From IMG/VR virus record IMGVR_UViG_3300032247_000646, positions 1 to 47,991 of that record: a stretch of DNA of 47,991 nt; one strand, given 5' to 3'. Both the position numbers and the translations under genes were made by a program. Position 1 is the stretch's first letter. Each line of letters starts with the position of its first letter. The stretch comes from a virus. Its lineage: Duplodnaviria; Caudoviricetes. The notes under the pieces were generated by a model, which was not told the origin of the DNA, did no database searches, and saw nothing but the letters and a program-made list of their open reading frames with translations. Of this stretch, positions 14,370-42,131 are shown in pieces.

Positions 14370-15344
14370 TTAGCTCCGATTGTTTGACATACGGTCGTAT
14401 TCAGCATAACGCATGATCATTTTCTTGCGCTCAGCCATGTTATCCCAACGACCAGCATCTTTGATGGCTTTCACTCGCTCGGGCGACAGGTAAAACTCGT
14501 TCGACTTGGTCGTCGACCGAGCGTCATTGCCTGAACTTGTAACCACCGATCGGGGCCTCCTAAAGTTGGACTTGTCCTCATTCTTTGCATTATACCTGTG
14601 CGGCAAGTATTTCGTTAAGCGGTTGTCGAGTTCGTCCCAATAATCAGGAGTTTTCGGATCCCAACCTTCGTTGACCAAAGACTCGTCGATCTTTGTGGCG
14701 ATCTGGCTGTCGGTGTCCTTGCCTTCAGGGTCGAACCAATCGTTGCGCGCCATCCAATCCCCGGCGTGCCGCTTGAGCATTGGGTCGGGTGTTTGCGGAA
14801 CGTTCTTTTGCTGAGGCTCGGAGACGACTTTTTTCTTAAGTGCGTCGAGAGCTTCCACCTGCCGCCGAGCTTCGTACCATTGCTCTTGAGCGTCGGCCAG
14901 CGCAGCGCCATTGGCCATCTCGGTGGCTTCTTTGATCTTCAGTTTTGCGTACTGAAGTTTCAAATGACCGTCTTCGATCGCTTTATCGAGCCGCGCAAGG
15001 TCAGAACCCGCCGTGCGTTTTTCAAGCACAGAAAGACGTTCTGCCATCTGCTCATTTTGCCGCCGCAGAGCGGTGATCAGATGGTTGGACTCGCTTGCTT
15101 TTGCCTTGTGAATCTGCTTTTTGAGCTGTCGCTCCTCGCGTCGAGCCAAACGGATTGCTTCGCGTTCCGGGTCAATATCCGGAATGTTATCTGCTCCGTT
15201 GTCGAAGTGCTCAGAGCTCTGCGAGGATTCTTGATTATCTGAATCCACGTTGTTGTTGGGAAATCCAGGTTCGACAACTGAGACGACTGCTGATCCATCG
15301 TTGCCCTCTGAAACTTGGAGATCCAATTTTTCTGATGAGTTCAT
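14370..15344 (-). CDS. Probable capsid scaffolding protein
   Basis: Acidic N-terminus, long coiled coil, 'W.ARNDWF' and 'DYWDELDNRL'; position upstream of the MCP. Confidence 0.65.
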   Translation of the reverse strand: MNSSEKLDLQVSEGNDGSAVVSVVEPGFPNNNVDSDNQESSQSSEHFDNGADNIPDIDPEREAIRLARREERQLKKQIHKAKASESNHLITALRRQNEQMAERLSVLEKRTAGSDLARLDKAIEDGHLKLQYAKLKIKEATEMANGAALADAQEQWYEARRQVEALDALKKKVVSEPQQKNVPQTPDPMLKRHAGDWMARNDWFDPEGKDTDSQIATKIDESLVNEGWDPKTPDYWDELDNRLTKYLPHRYNAKNEDKSNFRRPRSVVTSSGNDARSTTKSNEFYLSPERVKAIKDAGRWDNMAERKKMIMRYAEYDRMSNNRS

Positions 15345-15778
15345 AGGAATGCCTTCACTTTCAAGGGATCACCCGTCACTTTTGCAATGACCTCGTGATC
15401 GTTGAACACGCTGAAAAGTGCCGTTTCCCCGTCTTCAGAGTTCCCGTACGGTACTTCCCACCTGTCGCCGCCCCATTTTGGCATGCGGACGAAATCACCC
15501 ACGTCGACCCAGCTGCCTTCCGGCCACGGTTCGAGCGTGTCGCGTTTTTTGAAAGCCAGCGGACCCATCGCGATGACCTTGGCCACCTGATTGTTCCACT
15601 TTTCGGTTTCTTTTGTCTCTTCGATCAACACGATCCCGGTCGATGTAACGGTTTTCTTAGCAGCTCGCCACTGCACGAGAATCCTTCCACCCACTGGAAC
15701 CGCACCGGGATCAACTGCAGGAAATGCTTCCTGCAACGCTGCTTCATTCGAAGCTGCCCCGCTTTGGCTGTTCATCAT
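15341..15778 (-). CDS. groES: Co-chaperonin GroES-like protein
   Basis: 'PVGGRILVQ...TSTGIVL...AKVIAMGP...VGDFV...KWGG...NDHEVIAKV' matches the Cpn10 pattern. Confidence 0.8.
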   Translation of the reverse strand: MMNSQSGAASNEAALQEAFPAVDPGAVPVGGRILVQWRAAKKTVTSTGIVLIEETKETEKWNNQVAKVIAMGPLAFKKRDTLEPWPEGSWVDVGDFVRMPKWGGDRWEVPYGNSEDGETALFSVFNDHEVIAKVTGDPLKVKAFL

Positions 15779-21600: not shown

Positions 21601-22484
21601 TGCGGCGTAGCCATGTCGTTCCTGATGTACTTCCCGAGCTTCTTGTCGATCCAGTTGTTCAAATGAACACTAGGAACGTCTTTGCTCATGAGTGATTGAA
21701 ACTCAGCAGGGTAATTTGTTTCAAACCACTTCCAATAAGTGTCCCCGAAACGCATATCATCGGACTCTTCAAGGGCACGATTGAAGTTCAAATCAACTTC
21801 TGGGAAGTTGCGATAAACAAAATGCGACTCGTCATCTGTTGGGGGCTTGCTTATATCAATCTCAGGGTTTTTAGTTTTCAAACCTTGAAGATGACGATCG
21901 ACCCCCCTGCTTATCCAGTTACCACCTTTCTCTGGCTTGACCGCAAACGTAAGAGGGTTGGGCGCAACGGATTGCGGCAATCCTGGGATCAGCGACTCGC
22001 CCGAAAGCATGCGCTGAGTCATGGCTTCGCCAGCTGCCCGAGCTAAAGGTTTGGCGACTTTGGTTGTAGCAGCGCGAGCCAGCGCCCCAGCTGGCTGAGC
22101 CAAACTCGCCACATCCACAGCGCGTGGGTCAGTGCGGAAAGTCTGCAACGCGGGACCCCAAGTGTTGGGGTTGAGCGTTGCGGGGCTGCCACCATAGAAC
22201 GGCGAAGGAGTGTATGGGCGTTCGGAGGTGTTTTCGCGAGGCGTATGAGACCAATCCTGCAGCGCAGTACCTGCGCTTTGCAGCGGATCGGTGATAAGCA
22301 TCTGAGCGAGGAACGATTTGATCGGGGCGACTTTCTTCGTCTCAGTCAATGGCTCGGCCATCGACTTGCCCAGCGACTCAGCACGCTTGCCGAATGATCC
22401 AATGAACTTCTCGAGCTCGCTCTGTGGAATGGAGCGGATCTCGGAGCCAGCGAGGTCGAAGAACGGATTGTCGTCTTTAGCCAT
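18621..22484 (-). CDS. Large polyvalent protein: PcfJ-like, ART-PolyVal-like and DUF3626-like modules
   Basis: PcfJ-like 'SIGRQGGWCT...Y...LDAEGRPHA'; ART-like 'VYHAG..F...GLFT...GFDSL...VALDPS'; DUF3626-like 'KSVHET...E..MFG..AYGYL...YG..GLVL...RTTFTIDDS...YVEAQVHG.V'. Domain names assigned by eye. Confidence 0.6.
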   Translation of the reverse strand: MAKDDNPFFDLAGSEIRSIPQSELEKFIGSFGKRAESLGKSMAEPLTETKKVAPIKSFLAQMLITDPLQSAGTALQDWSHTPRENTSERPYTPSPFYGGSPATLNPNTWGPALQTFRTDPRAVDVASLAQPAGALARAATTKVAKPLARAAGEAMTQRMLSGESLIPGLPQSVAPNPLTFAVKPEKGGNWISRGVDRHLQGLKTKNPEIDISKPPTDDESHFVYRNFPEVDLNFNRALEESDDMRFGDTYWKWFETNYPAEFQSLMSKDVPSVHLNNWIDKKLGKYIRNDMATPHDPVLKLADEKGVLHVPFDEEPAYVDTRRRRHEAGLPVEGFAKTPLGQQWENLADQSINSKSAKTVIKQAELARPTQTAARDLEDNPWLRNVPPETRIYDTRPGEMSLTGFDHLVDELAASLAQNSELPANLRLTVKELDKMTVPHAVEHVAKVNEWRALEAERAEQAGMMENLNAASRLDDPTAQLSFVEKPGMKWIDLPEVVDEKGTKLCTSIGRQGGWCTMNTSTARQYGSGDNRLVAMLDAEGRPHAQAMISTSNYDYSQMHLGDVLHGEEAVGDQYYRNLQTLLERRGINPEDAQRYVELEAFGSPREIPAEIQGLMNELSSEAESMIPKKQTPLSDIIELKPPGNSFSSDRSEVYKKRDPEYQKKISESVVKFLNSGEWGRVNDLNLYNIFDLRDPSSYGGLTKLFGEEGADKVFAATRANGGTPPVRFMTRDQAKDFIERPEIVYHAGAEFNEPRPGLFTHPEREVVEKFQSSTNAPQLHTFEARPRRAGTEEDVYRVARQLGIYDPEIPVGQYLEQGENAIFPQSAQVVEELRNLGFDSLRLQDAMSKKPSLVALDPSVLRRVPPAEGYAKGGAVHMQVGGLASLARRLFKAPVAELGRAGIMSKSGKILTETFTPEELELIQNSIVMSRRKTLDDLAGADKRLKSVHETNRTGAASGPLRSKQARAEREPQMFGGLGQAYGYLTLDPLATLSGELSPRFPTKGTSHIVPTSQIPEYGRFGLVLHPELRGRTTFTIDDSLDRTLGSKTYPKEILRSMPYENSVEPGSVLHDLVTDYDALSTSIVENLKAQGTPQWKIPERLAEELAKINKPATFADLLRSEGLPPMDDGSGYFRLPRQIPRMLDNPTEPSLLSSEIYQLGSDDPTHFRNKLLQRDPMGYVEAQVHGDVTPENIQRIYDFGYEPSLKAEKQAKKLGIDYIPRPPAAYDIIKRANPQTMGEFYRLAEELGVLPSYLKGRESDSPMLPFGGNYAKGGKVSTNPFDHLI

Positions 22485-23124
22485 TTTTCAATCGGTCGAT
22501 GAGTTTGTCAGCCACCGCGAAGGACGTGTCAACGAGCAACCGCGCCAGCACATCCATCGCGAGTTGCTCGCGGGTGAATGGCTCAGGCTGCTCGACAGGC
22601 TCGGTAAACGACCAGTGATAGAACGCATACACGACCCGCTCGTCAGGCGCGCAAACCAAAGTATCGCGCCAATGTGGATATTTCCTTCCTTCGCACAACC
22701 CACCCTGACCGATGCCCAAATGCGTCGTGCTGTAGCTGCCCGTCCACGGCGTGTGGTCGATGCCGTTCTTCCACTCACCCACCCATGGCACGTTGCTGAT
22801 CTTCAGATCCCACAAAAAGCCACGCTTGTTCTCCAGACTCACGCTCAGTGTGAGGTCCAGGTCGGGGCGATCCGTGTGCACCAGCAGATAGCTCCCATTG
22901 TGGTACGACCGCGTGTACACGCTGTCGAACTTGATGTTGGGATGAACCTGCTTGACGATGCGCGTCACGTGCTCCGCGTGTTTGAGCGAGTCAGGCAGCT
23001 GGTACACTCCGTAGCTGTTGCGGTAGTACGGATCGTTCTTCAGTTCGCCTTCAACGGTCTTGTGCTCGTACGCGTCGAACGCAGCGACGATGTCTGCGCA
23101 TTGCTGAGGTGTGAAGATCTGCAT
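22477..23124 (-). CDS. 2OG-Fe(II) oxygenase
   Basis: HxD motif 'LLVHTDRPDLDLTLSVSL' and distal His in 'YPHWRD'; 'YTRSYHNG' strand typical of phage prolyl-hydroxylase-like enzymes. Confidence 0.8.
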   Translation of the reverse strand: MQIFTPQQCADIVAAFDAYEHKTVEGELKNDPYYRNSYGVYQLPDSLKHAEHVTRIVKQVHPNIKFDSVYTRSYHNGSYLLVHTDRPDLDLTLSVSLENKRGFLWDLKISNVPWVGEWKNGIDHTPWTGSYSTTHLGIGQGGLCEGRKYPHWRDTLVCAPDERVVYAFYHWSFTEPVEQPEPFTREQLAMDVLARLLVDTSFAVADKLIDRLKNG

Positions 23125-25038: not shown

Positions 25039-25299
25039 TCATTCGACCACTGTAAACACAATGCCTTCGAACTCTGCAGTCTTTTCCTCTTTGAGTTTTT
25101 TACGGAACAGTTGATGACGCGCCATCGGCAGTCCGAGCGCCATAAATGCGGCTGCAATCGACCGATACTGTTTGCCCTTGACCATCACTGCGGTGTGTTT
25201 GTTCGCCATGCGTTCCTCCAAGTCTTGAATAGCATGGAAGTATGCCTGAAGTTCCAGGAAATGAAATGCTTTTGGTGGTTCTTTTTTCGGCCTTCCCAT
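25039..25299 (-). CDS. Hypothetical protein, possible DNA-binding
   Basis: GGAG RBS; N-terminal 'GRPKK' and 'KQYRSIAAAFMALGL' helix motif. Confidence 0.65.
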   Translation of the reverse strand: MGRPKKEPPKAFHFLELQAYFHAIQDLEERMANKHTAVMVKGKQYRSIAAAFMALGLPMARHQLFRKKLKEEKTAEFEGIVFTVVE

Positions 25300-33387: not shown

Positions 33388-33891
33388 ATGAACATCTTCG
33401 TACTTCACCAATCTGCCCCACTCGCTGCTGCATTCCACTCCGACGTGCACGTCGTCAAGATGACGCTCGAAACTGCCCAGATCCTCGCTACCGTGCACCA
33501 CATTCACGGCAACGGCGACGCTGTTACGTACAAGCCCACCCACCAGAACCACCCTTGCGTGCAGTGGGCCGCTGCTTCGTTCGCTAATTATCGCTGGCTT
33601 CTTCAGCTCGGGCAATCGCTCGCCAAGCAGTACCGCATGCGCTACGGCAAAGAACACGCCTGCACCGCCCTTTTCTCGGGCGAGCTCAGCAAGGTACCAC
33701 CCAAGCTCACGCGTGCGCCTAGCGTCCCATTTGCACTGTGTATGCCCGATGATTGCAAAGACGCCGACCCTGTTGAGGCGTACCGCAAGTACTACCAGCA
33801 AAAGTACGAACAGAATGACTGGATGACCTGGGACCGTTCGACCTACGGCATGCCCGGCTGGATGCACTCAAAAAAAGTTTGCGAAATATGA
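33388..33891 (+). CDS. Pyrimidine-dimer DNA glycosylase/endonuclease V-like protein
   Basis: 'MNIFVL...H.D.HVVKMTLETAQIL.T', 'YKPTHQNHPCVQW', 'NYRWL', 'Y..RYGK.H', 'DPVEAYRKYY'. Confidence 0.8.
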   Translation: MNIFVLHQSAPLAAAFHSDVHVVKMTLETAQILATVHHIHGNGDAVTYKPTHQNHPCVQWAAASFANYRWLLQLGQSLAKQYRMRYGKEHACTALFSGELSKVPPKLTRAPSVPFALCMPDDCKDADPVEAYRKYYQQKYEQNDWMTWDRSTYGMPGWMHSKKVCEI

Positions 33892-35141: not shown

Positions 35142-35448
35142 GATCACCCGTGAGCGGACCATCCGCGAGCTTTTGCAAAAAGGAAACCTGACCATGCGGC
35201 AGATTGCTCGTCTGGCTGACTGTTCAACTCCGTACGTTTACCAGATCCGGAGCAAAGTTGAGCGCGAGAAATTACTCGCTGCTGAGGAGGCTCCCAAGGC
35301 GATGGTCAAGGTCAGCGACCTGATGAACCGCCCGTATCCTGTACAGAAGCAAAAGGATCCGAGCGAGATGCACATGCGCATCATGGCGATCCTTGCCTTT
35401 GCTGTTGTTTGGTTTTTAGCTGTTGTAATCTTTTCTTTCAAGGGGTAA
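35134..35448 (+). CDS. HTH-domain protein with C-terminal TM helix
   Basis: 'LTMRQIARLADCSTPYVYQIR' HTH; hydrophobic 'IMAILAFAVVWFLAVVIF'. Confidence 0.7.
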   Translation: MPKITRERTIRELLQKGNLTMRQIARLADCSTPYVYQIRSKVEREKLLAAEEAPKAMVKVSDLMNRPYPVQKQKDPSEMHMRIMAILAFAVVWFLAVVIFSFKG

Positions 35449-35453
35449 CCAAA

Positions 35454-36191
35454 ATGTCTGAGCTCATTCTTCCACCAGCCGCCACCGACGGTGTTAAGTT
35501 CGGCAAGCTGTCGAGCAAGTACGACCTGATCAGCACCGAGTCAGTTGTGAATCTCATGCGCGACGAGGGGTTCATCGTCACTGCCACCAACTCGCTCAAG
35601 CCACGGGTGCGCGACCCCCGCATGGTGCGGCACTTTGTGCGTATGCGCCACGAGCAGCACTTGGGCGAAGTCAACGGTTCTGTGCCCGAGATCCTCGTGA
35701 TCAATGCCAATGACGGTTCATCTTCATTGCGTATGGAAGCTGGCCTGTTCCGCATGGTGTGCTCGAACGGTCTGATCGTCAAGTCGCAAGACATCAGCTC
35801 GGCACGGATCCGGCACGTCGAAGTCACCGCCGACCGGGTGCTTGAGGAGGCCAATCGAGTTATTCAGGGAGCCAAAGAGGCTGCTCGCCGCGTGGACATC
35901 TTCAAGGACCGCATACTCAACCAATCTGAAAAGATGCAGTTCTCAGTGTTGGCTTCCGCATTCTGGGGTGGCCGGGTTATGCCTCACTCGCTGCTGGAGT
36001 CCCGCCGCCCCGAGGACAGCGGTGACGATCTGTGGTGCGTGTTCAACCGCATCCAGGAAAACATGATCAAGGGCGGCGTGGTCGGCCGGTCTGCCACCGG
36101 ACGCAACACCCGCACACACGGCATCCGCGCCATGGACAATAGCGTCAAAGTCAACATGAAGCTGTGGGAAATCGCCGAGGAGTTCGTATGA
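35454..36191 (+). CDS. DUF932 family protein
   Basis: 'SSKY..IST', 'H.VRMR', 'INANDGSSS..M.AGLFRMVCSNGLIV', 'R.ED.GDDLW.VFNRIQEN'; start at 35454. Confidence 0.85.
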   Translation: MSELILPPAATDGVKFGKLSSKYDLISTESVVNLMRDEGFIVTATNSLKPRVRDPRMVRHFVRMRHEQHLGEVNGSVPEILVINANDGSSSLRMEAGLFRMVCSNGLIVKSQDISSARIRHVEVTADRVLEEANRVIQGAKEAARRVDIFKDRILNQSEKMQFSVLASAFWGGRVMPHSLLESRRPEDSGDDLWCVFNRIQENMIKGGVVGRSATGRNTRTHGIRAMDNSVKVNMKLWEIAEEFV

Positions 36192-37102
36192 TCATATTGG
36201 GCGCTGGCCTGAGTGGGTTGATCGCTGCGGCGCTCAACCCGCAAGCAAAGGTCTTCGAGGCGGCGTCGCAAGACGCCCAGTCGCACCGGGCAGTGCTCCG
36301 GTTCCGTAGCTCGGCGGTGGGGGATGCGGTGGGCATCCCGTTCCGCAAGATCCGCGTGAACAAGGGCATCTGGTACCAAGGACAGTACTGCTTCCCCGAC
36401 ATCCAGTTGTCGAACATGTATTCGTACAAAGTCACTGGCGGGTACTTCGATCGGTCGATCTGGAAAACGGAGGCGGTGGACAGGTTCATCGCGCCGGAGG
36501 ACTTTATCCTGCGGCTGATCGAGCAAGTCGGTGACCGCGTGTCGTGGAACACACCCGTCACGGAACTGCCCGAGACGCGTCCGATCATCAGCACAATCCC
36601 GATGAACCGGGTCATGAGCCTGGTCAAGTTCGACAACCCCGACCACACTCAGTTCAAGTTCTCGCCGATCCGCGTGCAACGGTTCCGGATCCCACGCGCC
36701 GACGTGTTCCAGACGATCTACTATCCTTCGTCACACACTGCGGCTTATCGGGCTTCGATCACCGGCGACCTTTTGATCGTGGAATCAGTTGATGACCCAT
36801 CTTACCCAGACGTCAACATGGAGCATGTGTTGGCTTCGTTCGGGATCCTGGACAAGCACGAGCCAGTCGTGCCGATCGACGCAACTCACAAGCAAAGCTA
36901 CGGCAAGATCGCCCCAATCGACGAACGGTTCCGACGGTTCGTGGTGGAGCGGTTGTCTCAGAAACATTCAATTTACTCTTTAGGAAGATTCGCAACATGG
37001 CGCAACATACTCTTGGACGACGTCCTGCAAGACCTGAATGTGATCAAGAAGCTGATGAACGCGGATTCTTACACGAGGAAGATTGCCGCTTCCAGGGCAT
37101 AG
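36188..37102 (+). CDS. FAD-dependent oxidoreductase, UDP-galactopyranose mutase (Glf)-like
   Basis: N-terminal Rossmann 'IILGAGLSGLIAA...VFE', 'IISTIP', and C-terminal 'SLGRFATWR..LLDDV'; start at 36188 (ATGA overlap). Confidence 0.72.
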   Translation: MIILGAGLSGLIAAALNPQAKVFEAASQDAQSHRAVLRFRSSAVGDAVGIPFRKIRVNKGIWYQGQYCFPDIQLSNMYSYKVTGGYFDRSIWKTEAVDRFIAPEDFILRLIEQVGDRVSWNTPVTELPETRPIISTIPMNRVMSLVKFDNPDHTQFKFSPIRVQRFRIPRADVFQTIYYPSSHTAAYRASITGDLLIVESVDDPSYPDVNMEHVLASFGILDKHEPVVPIDATHKQSYGKIAPIDERFRRFVVERLSQKHSIYSLGRFATWRNILLDDVLQDLNVIKKLMNADSYTRKIAASRA

Positions 37103-37228
37103 ACTGCTTCGATCGCGGCGTGAACTTCGCATGCACAGTCATCGACGAATACATCAGGACGAACAACTTCAACGCAGAGCAGATCCTGCAGATAACCGCA
37201 ACCTTACAAAAGAAAGTGAGCAGACATT

Positions 37229-37966
37229 ATGAAAGTTGAACTAATCGATTTCACCGGCATCGGTCGCGAGGACGAGACGTGGCACGCCGCTGACGTTATG
37301 ATCTTCACCAAACAGACCCGGCTGAACTTGACGTCTGGTCTTATGAAAGAGGTCAAGGCGTGGGACGCCGCCAAGAAACAGCAAGAGCTGGATTACATGG
37401 CTAAAACCATCAAGAGCTCGTGGGAGTTCGTGGACGTGACTTTCCTACTCAGCGGGGTTAGTCGCGCCGTAGCGCAGCAAATAACCCGCACCCGCACTGC
37501 TTCCTACGCAATGCAGTCGATGCGGGTGACCGATGCGTCCAGTTTCGGCGTGGTGGAAGGCGAAAAGCTGGACGAACAGCAGCGCATGGCATACAGAGCG
37601 GCGGTGGATTCGTCCAAGTTCTTTTACACCGAGCTGGTCAAAATGGGCGTGGCGCTGGAGGACGCTCGTGGTATACTGCCGCTGAACACCGAGTGCAACA
37701 TCGTGTGCAAGTACAATTTCCGCACCCTCACCGACTTGGTTAAGGCACGCAAGTCTCTGCGCGCTCAAGGCGAGTACGGACAGATCGTGCGAGAGATGGA
37801 GCGACTCACCGTTGAAGCGTGGCCTTGGTCCAAACCGTTTTTCGAGTCTGACAAAGACGTCGCCATCAATATGCTCGAAGACATCGTCAAATCCATCGGA
37901 TTAACCACCGGCAAGGGTATGGGCTGGGAGATTGCAAAAGCCATCGACCTAATCAGGAAGGATTGA
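37229..37966 (+). CDS. thyX: Flavin-dependent thymidylate synthase (ThyX)-like protein with divergent signature
   Basis: 'SSWEFVDVTF..GVSRA..QQITRTRTASYAMQSMR', 'EDARGILP', 'NFRTL', 'RAQGE'; the canonical RHR is RTR here. Confidence 0.8.
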   Translation: MKVELIDFTGIGREDETWHAADVMIFTKQTRLNLTSGLMKEVKAWDAAKKQQELDYMAKTIKSSWEFVDVTFLLSGVSRAVAQQITRTRTASYAMQSMRVTDASSFGVVEGEKLDEQQRMAYRAAVDSSKFFYTELVKMGVALEDARGILPLNTECNIVCKYNFRTLTDLVKARKSLRAQGEYGQIVREMERLTVEAWPWSKPFFESDKDVAINMLEDIVKSIGLTTGKGMGWEIAKAIDLIRKD

Positions 37967-38199
37967 TTATGAACAACATAGTATTGATAGACAAAGACTC
38001 GAAGCATGTCATCGGGGTGAAAAGCGATGGCGAAGCAATAATGTTTTCCTGCAACCAGGGGTCCGGAACCCTGCTGACAAACGAACTGGTGACAGATGAC
38101 GGTAGAACAGTCGGCGAGCGCAACCGCTTACTGCTTCTGACGATGCTCAATGAGTGGCTCGACGCAACAATGAAGGCTAAACATGAAACCATCAATTAG
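37963..38199 (+). CDS. Hypothetical protein
   Basis: About 78-aa ORF filling the gap between the ThyX-like and HAD genes. Confidence 0.6.
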   Translation: MIMNNIVLIDKDSKHVIGVKSDGEAIMFSCNQGSGTLLTNELVTDDGRTVGERNRLLLLTMLNEWLDATMKAKHETIN

Positions 38200-38611
38200 A
38201 ATCGTCGACCTCGACCGCACGATCACCGACGATCGGTGGCGCTACTGGCTCATCAACCCACGCCTCCCGGACACCGACCCGACAAAGTACTATGCGTACC
38301 ACAATCATTGCGGCGGCGACGAAGTGATAAACCGCCATATCGTTGACGAGTCTCCGGTGGACGTGTTCTTCCTGACTGCGCGGCATGAATACGTGCGGTG
38401 GCAGACGATGAATTGGTTGCACAAAAACGGGTTCGACTACCAAGCACTGCTCATGCGCGAAGACGACAATCATGAGCCTTCTGCTAAGATGAAACAGAAG
38501 AAAGTAGCGGAGCTGATGAAGACGTACACCATTGAAGGTGCTTACGACGATCGATTGGAAATTCTCAATGCATACACCCAGTTGGGTATAAAAGGAGTGT
38601 GGGTACGATGA
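38183..38611 (+). CDS. HAD-family phosphatase (T4 PNK 3'-phosphatase-like)
   Basis: Motif I 'IVDLDRTI', motif II 'FLTAR', 'LLMREDD...SAKMK', motif IV 'AYDDR'. Confidence 0.8.
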   Translation: MKPSIRIVDLDRTITDDRWRYWLINPRLPDTDPTKYYAYHNHCGGDEVINRHIVDESPVDVFFLTARHEYVRWQTMNWLHKNGFDYQALLMREDDNHEPSAKMKQKKVAELMKTYTIEGAYDDRLEILNAYTQLGIKGVWVR

Positions 38612-38901
38612 AAACGGTTCCAGAAATCCTGCGCGAGTGCGCTGAAACGTACGAAGAGCGAAACAAAGTCTACGGCAACAACTACAAAAAGTTCGGTGCT
38701 GTGATGGCGGCGGTTTTCCCCAACGGGTTGTGCTTGTACACTGTGGAAGACTTCAACAGGCTCGGAGTGTTCATTCAATGCGTTAGCAAGGTCACGCGTT
38801 ATTCAGAAACCCTCACGCGTGGCGGCCACCAAGACTCTGCGCACGACTTGTCGGTGTATGCCGCTATGTTGGAGGAGTTGACGGATGCTAATCCTTCTTG
38901 A
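38608..38901 (+). CDS. DUF6378/MazG-like all-alpha putative dNTP pyrophosphohydrolase
   Basis: 'ER..VYG', 'SKVTRY', 'HQDSAHDLSVYAAML' pattern; start MKTVPE at 38608. The function is inferred. Confidence 0.6.
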   Translation: MKTVPEILRECAETYEERNKVYGNNYKKFGAVMAAVFPNGLCLYTVEDFNRLGVFIQCVSKVTRYSETLTRGGHQDSAHDLSVYAAMLEELTDANPS

Positions 38902-39415
38902 CTTCGAAACCACCGGCCTGACTCTGCCTAGCTCGTCAGACCTTGAACTGCAGCCGAGGATTATCGAGATCGGCGCAATTAAGGTCTCCGACCGAGGCAG
39001 CATTGTCGCGGAGTTGAGCGAGCTCATCGACCCGAAACAGGAGATCTCGGCTGAGATCACCAAGATCACCGGGATCAAGCCTGATCAACTGCGCGGCAAA
39101 CGGTGCATCGAGGAAGTCATCCCTGAGCTCGCGGACTTCTTCCTCGGAGCGCACACGCTCGTGGCGCACAATCTCGCTTTCGACCGCGATGTGTTGTACT
39201 TCGAGCTCCTGCGCACCGGGTGGGAGCGGCGGTTCCCGTTCCCGCCCAACCAGATCTGCACCGTGGATTCGACAATGCACATAAAGGGCAGACGCATGAA
39301 ACTCACCGAGCTCTACGAGCACACGCAAGGCGCACCACTCGCCCAGACGCACCGCGCACTCGACGACGTCAAAGCACTGCACGAATGCTACAAGGCGATC
39401 GCCCATGCTCACTAG
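38885..39415 (+). CDS. DEDDh 3'-5' exonuclease (DnaQ/epsilon-like)
   Basis: 'LDFETTG', 'IEIGA', 'VAHNLAFD', 'HRALDD'. Confidence 0.9.
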   Translation: MLILLDFETTGLTLPSSSDLELQPRIIEIGAIKVSDRGSIVAELSELIDPKQEISAEITKITGIKPDQLRGKRCIEEVIPELADFFLGAHTLVAHNLAFDRDVLYFELLRTGWERRFPFPPNQICTVDSTMHIKGRRMKLTELYEHTQGAPLAQTHRALDDVKALHECYKAIAHAH

Positions 39416-42131
39416 AACCGAGTTCACGTTCGGCAATTGTTTCGGCCCAATCAACAGGGTCGTGGAGCGAGCCACCAAGCTCGGGTTCAACAAACCCGCG
39501 ATCTGCGATGTCGGCACTTGGGGGCACGTGCCGTTCTTCAAGGCGGCTGAAAAGGCGGGGCTCCAGCCGGTGCTCGGCGCAGAACTCAAAGTCGGCGACG
39601 AGGAACGGTCGATCAAGGTTCTCGCCAAGAACCAAGAAGGAGTGCGGGAGCTGTATCGGCTGAGCGCGGGGATCACGTATGACTCCGAGTTCTCTGACAA
39701 CCTACTGGTGCTGCCGTTCACTGCCGACCCCGCTCTCGTGCAAGCCGCAGACATGGTGTTCGATCTGCACCCGCTGAACCCACTGCTCAACGAACAAAAC
39801 CGCGCTCTGGCCAAAAGGATGGCCAAGCCGCTACTGTTCGTTTCCGACGTGCGCTACCCTGCGCCGACCGACCGCAAGTATGCAGAGCTGCTCGGGGTGC
39901 GGCTTGGAGCGCACTCGCAACACTGGTGGTCGCCAGCGGAAATGGAGCAGCACTTTCCAGAATCCATGCTGTGGGGCGAATTCGCCGAGCGGTTCGAGAA
40001 AGTCAAGCTCCCGGTGGCCGAAAATATGGTCGTAGAGGGCGACTTAGAAGCCGAGGCAAGGAAAGGTATTCCCTGGCGCTTTCCACGCGGTTTCGGTGAG
40101 GAATACGAGGCTCGGCTTCAGCGCGAGTTGGGGGTGATCCGGGAGAAACAGTTTGAGTCGTACTTCCTGATGGTCTACGATTTGATCCGTTGGGCGCGAG
40201 AGCGCATGCTGGTGGGTCCGGGTCGCGGGTCATCGTCAGGTTCGATAATCTGTTACCTGCTCGGAATCACCGAACTCGACCCAATTGAGCATGGGTTGCT
40301 GTTCGAGCGGTTCGTCGACGTGACCCGGATCGACCTGCCCGATATCGACATGGACTTCCCAGGGGATCGCCGGGACGAACTGTTCACGTATCTGCAAGGC
40401 AAGTACGGTGCGCAAAGCATCGCTCGGCTCGGAAACGTCAACCGACTGAAGCCCAAATCGATCCTTGTCAATGTGGGCAAGCGCATGCGGATTCCGTCTT
40501 GGGAAACAGCAGAGATCCGCGACAACATGATTGAGCGATCCTCGGGTGATTCGCGTGCGGCGTTTTGTCTCGAGGACACGATGGGTGCGCTCAAGGCTGG
40601 GCGCGAACTGCTCGATAAACACCCCGGTTTCCGCAATGCCGGGGCCTTAGAAGGCCACGCATCTCACGCTGGGGTGCACGCTGCAGGGGTGATCATCTGC
40701 AACACGCCTGTGGCCGATTACTGCTCAGTCACTGCGGAGGGCATCTCGCAAATCGACAAGTATCAGGCCGAGTCGCTCAACTTGATGAAGCTCGACGCAC
40801 TCGGGCTGAAGACGCTGGACGTCGTGCAGGAAACACTCGACAAAGTCGGCAAGAAGATCACCGACATCGACGTGCACGACCAGAAGATCTACGACCTGTT
40901 GAATAGCCAGAAGATCACCGGTGTGTTCCAGCTGGAAGGCGACGCCGCCCGGCAGTTGCTACGGCAGTTTCAGGTCAAGAACTTCAACGACATCGTCGCA
41001 CTGACTTCGTTGGCTCGCCCCGGACCGTTGCAGTCGGGCGGTGCAAAGAAGTTCATGGAGGTGCGTCGGGGCACGGACACCCCGACCTATTACCACGACA
41101 TTCACCGCAAGTGGACCGAGCAGACCGAAGGTGTGGTGGTCTATCAGGAGCAGATCCTGTTCTTGGGCCGGGACATTGGGCTGCTCGGGTGGCCGGAGCT
41201 CACTGCGTTGCGCCGGGCAATGTCAAAGTCGCTCGGCAAGGAGTACTTCGATCAGTTCCGGGACAAGTTCTTGGAAGGTGCCGAGAAGCAGGACATCAAC
41301 CGCGAAGCCGCACTCGAAGTGTGGAACTCAATGATGCACGCAGGGTCTTACGCCTTCGTGAAGGCACACGCCGCTGCATACTCCGTCATCTCCGCGTGGA
41401 CAGCTTGGCTTAAATATTACCACCCACTCGAATTCTGCGCTGCTTCCTTGCGCCACACCTCGGACGACGAGGCAGTCCTCAAACTCCTGCGGGAGATCAC
41501 CGCCGAAGGTTTCAAGTATGTGGCTTTCGACAAATCTCGATCTGAAGCCAGTTGGGCAGCAAAAGGAGACGCAATTTACGGTGGGTTGACCGCCGTACAC
41601 GGTATCGGTCCAAAAATGGCTCAAAAGGTGCTCGATTCTCGTGAAACAGGGAAGCCGCTGCCTCCGAGTATAACTGCTAAGCTCGACAATCCCAAGCTCA
41701 AATGGCCCGACCCGTACCCATTCACGCTTCTGTATGGCGATTGGTACGTCAACCCGCGTAAGCACGGGCTCAAAGAGGGTTCAACGCTAACCAAATGCAA
41801 CGAACTCGAAGCCGACTCCACCGAGCGGGTGGTGCTTGGTGTGTTGGCAGAGAAGAACTTGCGCGACGCGCTAGAGACCGGTAATGTCATGAAACGCGGC
41901 GGCGTCATCACTGATTATGATCGGCAATACCGGTATTGGCTCAATATCACGCTCAAGGACGACACCGGGTTGGCGATCGCCACCATCCGGAGGAAGGATT
42001 ATGAGAAAATGGGAAAAGAGATTCTCGAGTCCGTTCCAATTGGGGCTGTAATGCTCTTGCGCGGGAAGATGGGTGGAAACGGGATCCGAATGCTTCAGAT
42101 CGAAAAGTGGAAGGTAATTCAAGGCGTTTGA
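39405..42131 (+). CDS. dnaE: DNA polymerase III alpha subunit (family C, DnaE-type)
   Basis: Degenerate PHP N-terminus; 'VGPGRGS..GS...YLLGIT..DPI...LLFERF', catalytic 'PDIDMDF' and 'KLDALGL', 'GVFQLE', 'VYQEQ', 'YAFVKAHAAAYS', HhH 'HGIGPK'. Confidence 0.95.
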   Translation: MLTRTEFTFGNCFGPINRVVERATKLGFNKPAICDVGTWGHVPFFKAAEKAGLQPVLGAELKVGDEERSIKVLAKNQEGVRELYRLSAGITYDSEFSDNLLVLPFTADPALVQAADMVFDLHPLNPLLNEQNRALAKRMAKPLLFVSDVRYPAPTDRKYAELLGVRLGAHSQHWWSPAEMEQHFPESMLWGEFAERFEKVKLPVAENMVVEGDLEAEARKGIPWRFPRGFGEEYEARLQRELGVIREKQFESYFLMVYDLIRWARERMLVGPGRGSSSGSIICYLLGITELDPIEHGLLFERFVDVTRIDLPDIDMDFPGDRRDELFTYLQGKYGAQSIARLGNVNRLKPKSILVNVGKRMRIPSWETAEIRDNMIERSSGDSRAAFCLEDTMGALKAGRELLDKHPGFRNAGALEGHASHAGVHAAGVIICNTPVADYCSVTAEGISQIDKYQAESLNLMKLDALGLKTLDVVQETLDKVGKKITDIDVHDQKIYDLLNSQKITGVFQLEGDAARQLLRQFQVKNFNDIVALTSLARPGPLQSGGAKKFMEVRRGTDTPTYYHDIHRKWTEQTEGVVVYQEQILFLGRDIGLLGWPELTALRRAMSKSLGKEYFDQFRDKFLEGAEKQDINREAALEVWNSMMHAGSYAFVKAHAAAYSVISAWTAWLKYYHPLEFCAASLRHTSDDEAVLKLLREITAEGFKYVAFDKSRSEASWAAKGDAIYGGLTAVHGIGPKMAQKVLDSRETGKPLPPSITAKLDNPKLKWPDPYPFTLLYGDWYVNPRKHGLKEGSTLTKCNELEADSTERVVLGVLAEKNLRDALETGNVMKRGGVITDYDRQYRYWLNITLKDDTGLAIATIRRKDYEKMGKEILESVPIGAVMLLRGKMGGNGIRMLQIEKWKVIQGV

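Follow-up and report, generated by a model that had tools for sequence, protein, structure and literature searches.

In the phages T4 and SPO1, hydroxymethylcytosine and hydroxymethyluracil are reportedly introduced by pre-replicative base replacement with ThyA homologues, i.e., repurposed thymidylate synthases. The same strategy is described for the 5-hydroxy-deoxycytidine of RB69 (PMC13326640). Bacillus phage SP-15 carries the C-linked base 5-(4,5-dihydroxypentyl)uracil, which is made before DNA synthesis, along with a second, divergent Thy1 gene (PMC5977210, where ribose as precursor appears in the title of a cited reference). For Carin-5 and YerA41, linkers of T+88 and T+104 (T, thymidine) have been reported (PMC12686479). 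Here, we study positions 36188..42131 of the 47,991-bp linear IMG/VR virus record IMGVR_UViG_3300032247_000646 (85% complete; the whole record is called the window in the following). This region holds a block of six genes, the cassette, encoding a flavin adenine dinucleotide (FAD) protein with UDP-galactopyranose mutase (UGM, Glf) fold, a variant ThyX, a HAD phosphatase, a DUF6378 protein, an epsilon-type exonuclease and a DnaE polymerase. Very probably, the product of the cassette is a modified T, whatever the chemistry of its synthesis.

That thymidylate synthases can be repurposed and that Pbunaviruses carry a modified base was known before; the assignment of the cassette to this base appears to be new. 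Our literature search, which lay mostly outside subscription journals, found nothing linking the cassette genes to the base or describing a ThyX that uses another donor, although the pathway may have been published in later or subscription papers. The assignment points to genes that may underlie the thymidine modification of Pbunaviruses, which are used in phage therapy and for which this modification has lacked an explanation. It predicts modified DNA for about 360 deposited phage records (Pbunavirus, Wifcevirus, Serratia, Xanthomonas, Vibrio, Ralstonia and Rhizobium phages), for about 500 IMG/VR stretches and probably for cluster D-type actinophages, whose ThyX-like gene bears the annotation of an ordinary thymidylate synthase. 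If true, a ThyX-family enzyme would make a DNA base other than T using new flavin chemistry, which would offer a testable route to a question from the 1970s, i.e., how SP-15 builds its pentyl-uracil. With about 6 kb, the six-gene block is small enough for expression.

Conservation of the gene block and its variant ThyX

All open reading frames (ORFs) of the block lie on the + strand at the coordinates of the initial annotation, which had rightly described them as co-oriented and mostly overlapping: neighbouring cassette ORFs share 4-17 bp. The block starts with the flavoprotein (304 aa, PHROG 4828; 36188..37102, +), followed after a gap of 126 bp by ThyX (245 aa; 37229..37966, +). The gap is spanned by a doubtful 80-aa ORF (36997..37239, +) that overlaps the flavoprotein gene by 106 bp and is present only in near relatives. 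Downstream of ThyX we find a 78-aa ORF that is not conserved across other cassette loci (37963..38199, +), the HAD phosphatase (38183..38611, +), the all-alpha DUF6378 protein (38608..38901, +), the exonuclease (38885..39415, +) and DnaE (908 aa; 39405..42131, +).

Of 50,697 annotated phage records, 362 encode a homologue of the flavoprotein (Pseudomonas phages account for 292 of these). Homologues also occur in 515 IMG/VR stretches and, at E ≤ 1e-10, in 1,012 clusters at 50% identity. We inspected the best 80 of the 515 stretches, of which 48 (near-copies included) hold enough downstream DNA. ThyX is present in all 48 loci, DUF6378 in 47, HAD in 46, and both epsilon and DnaE in 45. Since 44/48 loci hold the six genes in the same order and on the same strand, the arrangement is not due to chance, i.e., the cassette is a conserved unit, and the gene-neighbourhood check suggested initially thus turns out positive. 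In the reciprocal search from ThyX, 44 of the 80 loci fetched extend 5 kb or more upstream, and the flavoprotein is present in 44/44.

We also compared the gene families of 13 genomes with the cassette, i.e., the window, two relatives, F8, 14-1 and a choice of 8 from 37. Four families are common to all 13, namely those of flavoprotein, ThyX, epsilon and DnaE, and no other is; HAD/DUF6378 and an SNF2 family are found in 11/13 and an ORF77-like family in 9/13. The jumbo phage RHph_TM30 carries flavoprotein, variant ThyX and DUF6378, with no DnaE within 10 kb of the locus. DnaE is therefore not obligatory to the cassette. A cellular role was considered and rejected: when prokaryote genomes were scanned, the 6 loci obtained were without exception on contigs of metagenome-assembled genomes (MAGs), and each had the variant ThyX downstream. 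One 3-kb contig, binned as a Microbacteriaceae MAG, encodes a 98% identical flavoprotein and is probably mis-binned phage DNA rather than host evidence.

The ThyX of the window matches Pfam Thy1 (PF02511, E 5e-31) and its fold resembles that of T. maritima ThyX (Foldseek E 9e-11, TM-score 0.70), the numbering of which we use via alignment. With regard to 71 variant sequences, E58, Q75, R78, R80, R90, R147 and R174 are invariant, including the arginines that bind FAD and deoxyuridine monophosphate (dUMP; R78, R80, R90, R174). That is, the subfamily shares fold and FAD/dUMP arginines with ThyX, while three other positions are substituted in 71/71 sequences: His53 of the folate site by I or L, His79 of the ThyX motif RHR by T, S or N, and Tyr91 by V, T, I or A. 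The Ser88 position holds T in 50, S in 15 and A in 6 sequences, and the resulting signature is TI[PK]SSWEF ... R[TSN]R. The window protein retains E58, R78, R80, R90, R147 and R174 and carries H53->I, H79->T and Y91->V. In ThyX, His53 is reported to stack on the folate pteridine and to pair with Tyr91 (PMC11940539), and Tyr91 and Ser88 to be critical for methylation (PMC8316439). As judged from the alignment, the substitutions of the variant ThyX affect the binding site of the one-carbon donor, and the initial classification as a variant is borne out by systematic changes.

For comparison, 8 other viral ThyX were chosen from 60 listed matches. Six are conventional, with RHR in 6/6 and both His53 and Tyr91 in 5/6; the exception is STSV1, which has Tyr and Phe at the His53 and Tyr91 positions. 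The other two belong to actinophages; they show the losses as well and form the sister group of the variants in the tree (support 97/92). In the Mycobacterium phage WaldoWhy and the Gordonia phage DumpTruck, genes for an oxidoreductase, a HAD protein, a methyltransferase, a short-chain dehydrogenase/reductase (SDR), DnaE and a ThyX-like protein lie together, and the oxidoreductase aligns remotely to the flavoprotein (E 3e-4, probability 40%). Among five genomes tested, this oxidoreductase is found in two, i.e., in both sister-clade genomes without His53, and is absent from two phages with conventional ThyX and from SP-15. The notion of a sister clade without flavoprotein was thus rejected, given the remote homologue in both genomes. 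The remote cassette together with a His53-less ThyX was seen in cluster D mycobacteriophages, Gordonia Lamboviruses, Onyinye and the Streptomyces phage Rooney (L422:5469-13682, L423:4734-14579, L179, L182). Modified T is predicted for phages with this remote version.

The flavoprotein matches PHROG 4828, a family of unknown function; it has no Pfam match at E ≤ 0.05 (GLF family included) and no match in a sequence search against the PDB. We modelled it with AlphaFold (105 sequences in the alignment, predicted local distance difference test score 87.5). The model is closest to UGM in Foldseek (E 9e-10, TM-score 0.65) as well as in the VIA search (Z 20.3, root-mean-square deviation 3.4, 292 aligned residues), where protoporphyrinogen oxidase is the next-best family (Z 17.4). 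Besides this best structural match, the GxGxxG motif of the FAD Rossmann fold is common to both, and many Arg/Lys are invariant in the family. The initial label Glf-like thus holds at the level of the fold. On the other hand, the protein is shorter than E. coli Glf (304 vs. 367 aa) and lacks the Pfam GLF match; alignments of both are not significant (11-18% identity), and the histidine loop and UDP-binding arginines are not placeable in them. Going by the model, the shared fold does not establish mutase activity; the protein likely activates or opens a sugar donor. UGM is reported to form a flavin N5-sugar adduct (PMC8316439). The canonical UGM of the glycosyl-cytosine phage RL38J1 is described to feed glycosyltransferases, while our scan of 44 window ORFs against Pfam and PHROG detected neither a glycosyltransferase nor a nucleotide-kinase family, which agrees with the initial annotation.

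The HAD protein matches Pfam HAD_PNKP (E 2e-7) and shows D9-x-D11, T65, K104 and D122-D123; it likely strips a phosphate from the sugar tail. The DUF6378 match (E 1e-3) lies under the curated cut-off. Conserved in this protein are E17, K61, R64, D76 and D80, of which the acidic E17, D76 and D80 are candidate metal ligands. Its Atlas neighbour bears the name nucleotide-modification-associated domain, and DUF6378 is a putative MazG-like deoxynucleoside triphosphate (dNTP) pyrophosphatase. The exonuclease (Pfam RNase_T, E 7e-24) is of the 3'-5' DEDDh type with intact motifs, and DnaE (DNA_pol3_alpha, E 1e-63), a family C polymerase, shows the motifs PDIDMD and KLDALG.

Further genes accompany the cassette in other loci, i.e., an SDR gene in 27/48 and a glyoxalase-like gene in 25/48 (named by GenBank annotation, no Pfam match), both mostly inserted within the block, and a methyltransferase gene between DUF6378 and DnaE in 5/48. 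The cassette of the window has none of the three. Inside its cassette, Vibrio phage VA-RY-3 has a sulfotransferase-fold gene (L003:12178-12933), which may encode yet another tailoring enzyme or a kinase. In 21 of the loci clustered, a gene for a pyrimidine-dimer DNA glycosylase (PF03013) is found in the cassette or close to it (e.g., L014:10369-10731).

These data allow us to assess whether the block serves ordinary nucleotide supply, i.e., whether ThyX makes deoxythymidine monophosphate (dTMP) and other genes modify Pbunavirus DNA. The intact ThyX fold with its FAD/dUMP arginines and the database annotation of the variant as thymidylate synthase would suit this explanation. We nevertheless consider it very improbable, given the fixed loss of His53 and Tyr91, the obligate pairing with a UGM-fold protein, which extends to the actinophage sister clade, and the insertion of tailoring genes inside the block.

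Modified thymidine in the Pbunaviruses F8 and 14-1

The initial annotation named a similar gene set in PB1-like phages. Indeed, the Pbunaviruses F8 and 14-1 each carry all six cassette genes in the order of the window (27-41% identity), with HAD and DUF6378 fused in ORF57. Otherwise, these 66-kb phages overlap with the window only in the SNF2 helicase and the ORF77-like domain. A preprint reports novel nucleosides of 362 Da for F8 and 390 Da for 14-1 (bioRxiv 10.1101/2025.03.31.646159), with one novel peak per phage and a modified base that replaces about a quarter of T. It links the modification to restriction resistance and to targeting by END nucleases, and its accessible text does not name biosynthetic genes. 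The modified pyrimidine proposed initially is thus backed by modified thymidine reported in two cassette-bearing phages; the catalytic steps given below are putative. By contrast, the claim that the normal nucleotide is depleted does not agree with the reported substitution. That is, full depletion of deoxythymidine triphosphate is unlikely, as F8 and 14-1 keep about three quarters of their T unmodified.

We compared both phages for genes that may relate to their mass difference, i.e., 390 - 362 = 28 = 2 x CH2. Two of 60 ORFs of 14-1 have no match in F8, and one of these is ORF12.1, a PHROG methyltransferase. Over its full length, it shares 41% identity with a methyltransferase encoded within the cassette of another locus (L059, E 7e-49). 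The gene (L091:6707-7207) is present in 58 Pseudomonas phage records, compared to 292 with the flavoprotein, and absent from F8 and LMA2. It may explain the 390 vs. 362 Da, i.e., a cassette-associated gene is tied to the chemical difference between F8 and 14-1 by correlation in one pair only.

Candidate pathway and alternatives

From genes, folds, residue changes, linkage, mobility and the presence in phages with modified T, we infer a pathway in which the flavoprotein would supply the variant ThyX with a pentose chain to be coupled via a C-C bond to dUMP; HAD would then remove the phosphate, and DnaE would insert the product into DNA. We give this reading an even chance. First, the flavoprotein would, given its fold, activate or ring-open a pentose donor. 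Second, the aldehyde carbon would be loaded on N5 of the ThyX flavin, as with formaldehyde, which ThyX is reported to accept in free form through a flavin-N5 carbinolamine (PMC8316439); C5 of dUMP would then attack and flavin hydride would reduce the product to 5-(2,3,4,5-tetrahydroxypentyl)-dUMP. Third, HAD would take off the tail phosphate, and DUF6378 could trim the dNTP pool, most simply by converting deoxyuridine triphosphate to dUMP. Fourth, the triphosphate would be made by host kinases; no kinase was found among the window ORFs scanned. Fifth, DnaE with epsilon would retain the bulky base mainly in TG context, which is the weakest step. The optional SDR, glyoxalase-like and methyltransferase genes might tailor the tail; the window is without them, and an F8-type 362-Da nucleoside is therefore predicted for it. 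For Wifcevirus, which has the SDR and glyoxalase-like genes, and for cluster D mycobacteriophages, we predict fewer hydroxyls on the tail (346 or 330 Da, with or without methyls). The purpose of the modification is likely protection from restriction enzymes.

The mass of 362 Da corresponds to C14H22N2O9, i.e., deoxyuridine (dU) plus C5H10O4 as C-linked tetrahydroxypentyl. The same formula fits an O-linked tetritol on hydroxymethyl-dU (hmdU) equally well. Such hmdU ethers (tetritol in F8, pentose in 14-1) would arise at the nucleotide level if the ThyX methylene, from folate or formaldehyde, was trapped with a polyol supplied by the flavoprotein. This is close to the wording of the preprint authors, who propose after tandem mass spectrometry a tetritol and a cyclic aldopentose derivative (10.1101/2025.03.31.646159), and it fits both masses. 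Furthermore, a UGM-like enzyme could supply a furanose, and ThyX is known to pass through an intermediate with the exocyclic methylene (PMC8316439). We still regard this chemistry as unlikely: the folate-stacking His53 and its partner Tyr91 are lost in every variant, and the cassette-linked methyltransferase that distinguishes 14-1 from F8 would be left unaccounted for. For 14-1, we computed 390.164 for the dimethylated C16H26N2O9 and 390.127 for C15H22N2O10 (pentose reading), which the triple quadrupole instrument used in the preprint (10.1101/2025.03.31.646159) presumably cannot separate.

The TG context, which the preprint infers from ten restriction enzymes (10.1101/2025.03.31.646159), is unexplained by a pre-replicative model and favours a step on DNA. 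A TG preference is likewise described for alpha-dapT, which, like the bases of M6, ViI and phiW-14, belongs to the post-replicative hypermodifications of hmdU (PMC13458397). In a two-stage scheme, the cassette would make and incorporate a simple precursor or plain T, and the sugar would be added on DNA at TG by the flavoprotein or an unrecognised gene. The substitution of about 25% is in accordance with this, TG having a share of 27-28% among the T dinucleotides of F8 and 14-1; so are the many invariant Arg/Lys of the flavoprotein and the ORF77-like, possibly DNA-binding domain that accompanies the cassette in 9/13 genomes. We judge the scheme improbable all the same. Families of hmdU kinase, aGPT-PPlase, TET/JBP or glycosyltransferase were found neither in 55 ORFs of 14-1 (most structural ORFs lay outside the scan) nor in the 44 window ORFs; remote homologues may escape these scans. 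In addition, the preprint reports a single novel peak per phage, the SDR, glyoxalase-like and HAD proteins resemble small-molecule enzymes, and the polymerase is tightly linked.

Besides the TG context and the authors' reading of the bases, several further observations weigh against C-C coupling by the variant ThyX. The 18 variant ThyX in our tree form one side of a branch with a weak support of 81/92. Pbunaviruses have a separate MazG-like gene (ORF49), therefore DUF6378 need not be the pool-trimming enzyme. Modified T is reported for F8 and 14-1 and predicted for the window phage. Between F8 and 14-1, ORF57, 58, 60 and 61 are only 78-82% identical, compared to 94-99% for ORF55, 56, 59, 65, 67 and 68, such that the divergence of these four might account for the mass shift with no part played by the methyltransferase. 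LMA2, which has 14-1-type ORF57-59 (98% identity) but no methyltransferase, would separate the two explanations. SP-15, finally, has no detectable flavoprotein homologue, its gp130 matches the variant ThyX profile at E 0.005 only, and the profile of the cassette SDR gives no match to the SDR of SP-15. We found no direct homology of the cassette to the SP-15 pathway.

A failed control has to be added. In the window, 6-bp palindromes containing TG are less avoided than others (0.96 vs. 0.80 and 0.20), and F8 and 14-1 behave alike. When comparing 6 cassette-positive with 15 cassette-negative genomes, neither the ratio (p=0.34) nor the TG observed/expected value (p=0.066) differs significantly. 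Since cassette-negative relatives show the same bias, it was rejected as a signature of modification and is uninformative. GC-only 6-bp palindromes are strongly depleted in the window (19 seen, 95 expected), similar to several cassette-negative relatives.

Genomic setting and comparison with known modified-base systems

Beyond the cassette, the Pfam/PHROG scan identified terminase, portal, capsid and tail-spike genes in the window as well as a replication arm of SNF2, DUF2800, Enc34-SSB and primase. No sheath or long-tail family is among the 44 ORFs scanned, and we read the virus as podovirus-like. A DUF932 protein (35409..36191, +) precedes the flavoprotein and is a non-core upstream neighbour in some loci. 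An 86-aa ORF (25039..25299, -) is similar to the C-terminal part of ORF77 of Pbunavirus (PHROG 4730); in other loci, members of this family are often inserted between flavoprotein and ThyX. Weak matches suggest that it is possibly a NUMOD-like DNA-binding domain, which we treat as a lead only.

Three further ORFs were observed. A GroES-like co-chaperonin amid the head genes (15341-15778, -) is kept in 18/18 relatives compared. A 215-aa ORF after the terminase (22477-23124, -) weakly matches a PHROG named ferrochelatase and has no homologue in the 18 relatives. A 167-aa ORF (33388-33891, +; PHROG 624, DNA binding protein) is found in two cassette-positive and two cassette-negative relatives.

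To relate the cassette to its genomic background, we chose 31 records with close capsid or terminase. The flavoprotein is present in 2/31 and DnaE in 3/31; among the 17 relatives that are at least 90% complete, two have both and 15 neither. The mobile module proposed initially is supported by these 15 genomes, with the restriction that in the lineage of the window the exchange extends beyond the six genes to the entire replication arm. In four relatives (G002, G004, G005, G006) with capsid proteins 93-96% identical to that of the window, a PurZ-like (adenylosuccinate-synthetase-like) gene beside PolA replaces the cassette (e.g., L361:13102-16072). One virion module thus appears to pair with different base-replacement modules.

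With regard to known systems, the reported masses can be arranged as T+88 (SP-15, Carin-5), T+104 (YerA41) and T+120 (F8). By our arithmetic, which differs from the authors' reading, this series agrees with a chain of five carbons that bears 2, 3 and 4 hydroxyls, respectively. YerA41 and Carin-5 are not among the flavoprotein matches listed, their genomes not having been searched one by one. In SP-15, gp129 (SDR) adjoins gp130 (413-aa divergent Thy1; L086:35026-36911), and both are candidates for the synthesis of dihydroxypentyluracil rather than of hmdUMP, i.e., hmdU monophosphate. A folate-independent ThyX subfamily that joins C5 of uracil via a C-C bond to a ring-opened pentose supplied by a UGM-fold protein could be the root pathway of a family of polyhydroxypentyl-uracils (SP-15, YerA41, Carin-5, Pbunavirus, actinophage clusters). 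SDR, glyoxalase-like and methyltransferase enzymes would then tailor the product, the family C polymerase and its exonuclease rather than a DNA-modifying enzyme would set the TG context, and the 14-1 base would be the dimethylated F8 base. We put this forward tentatively and hold it to be doubtful as a whole.

Post-replicative hmdU systems resemble F8 and 14-1 in TG context and partial substitution, while their ThyA-type hmdUMP synthase, DNA kinase and aGPT-PPlase-type transferase are found neither in the 44 window nor in the 55 14-1 ORFs. ThyA-based replacement systems share with the cassette that a repurposed or altered synthase, a nucleotide hydrolase and the phage's own polymerase are co-encoded. 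In the cassette, however, the synthase is of the ThyX family, which is unrelated to ThyA, a second flavoenzyme is encoded and the polymerase belongs to family C; in addition, substitution is partial in F8 and 14-1. SP-15 differs by its family A polymerase, added glycosylation and only remote ThyX similarity, and we read it as an analogy to the cassette, not as a homologue. It nevertheless resembles the putative cassette product and its genes in the C5 polyhydroxy-pentyl chain made before replication, a Thy1 beside an SDR and a partial substitution of T.

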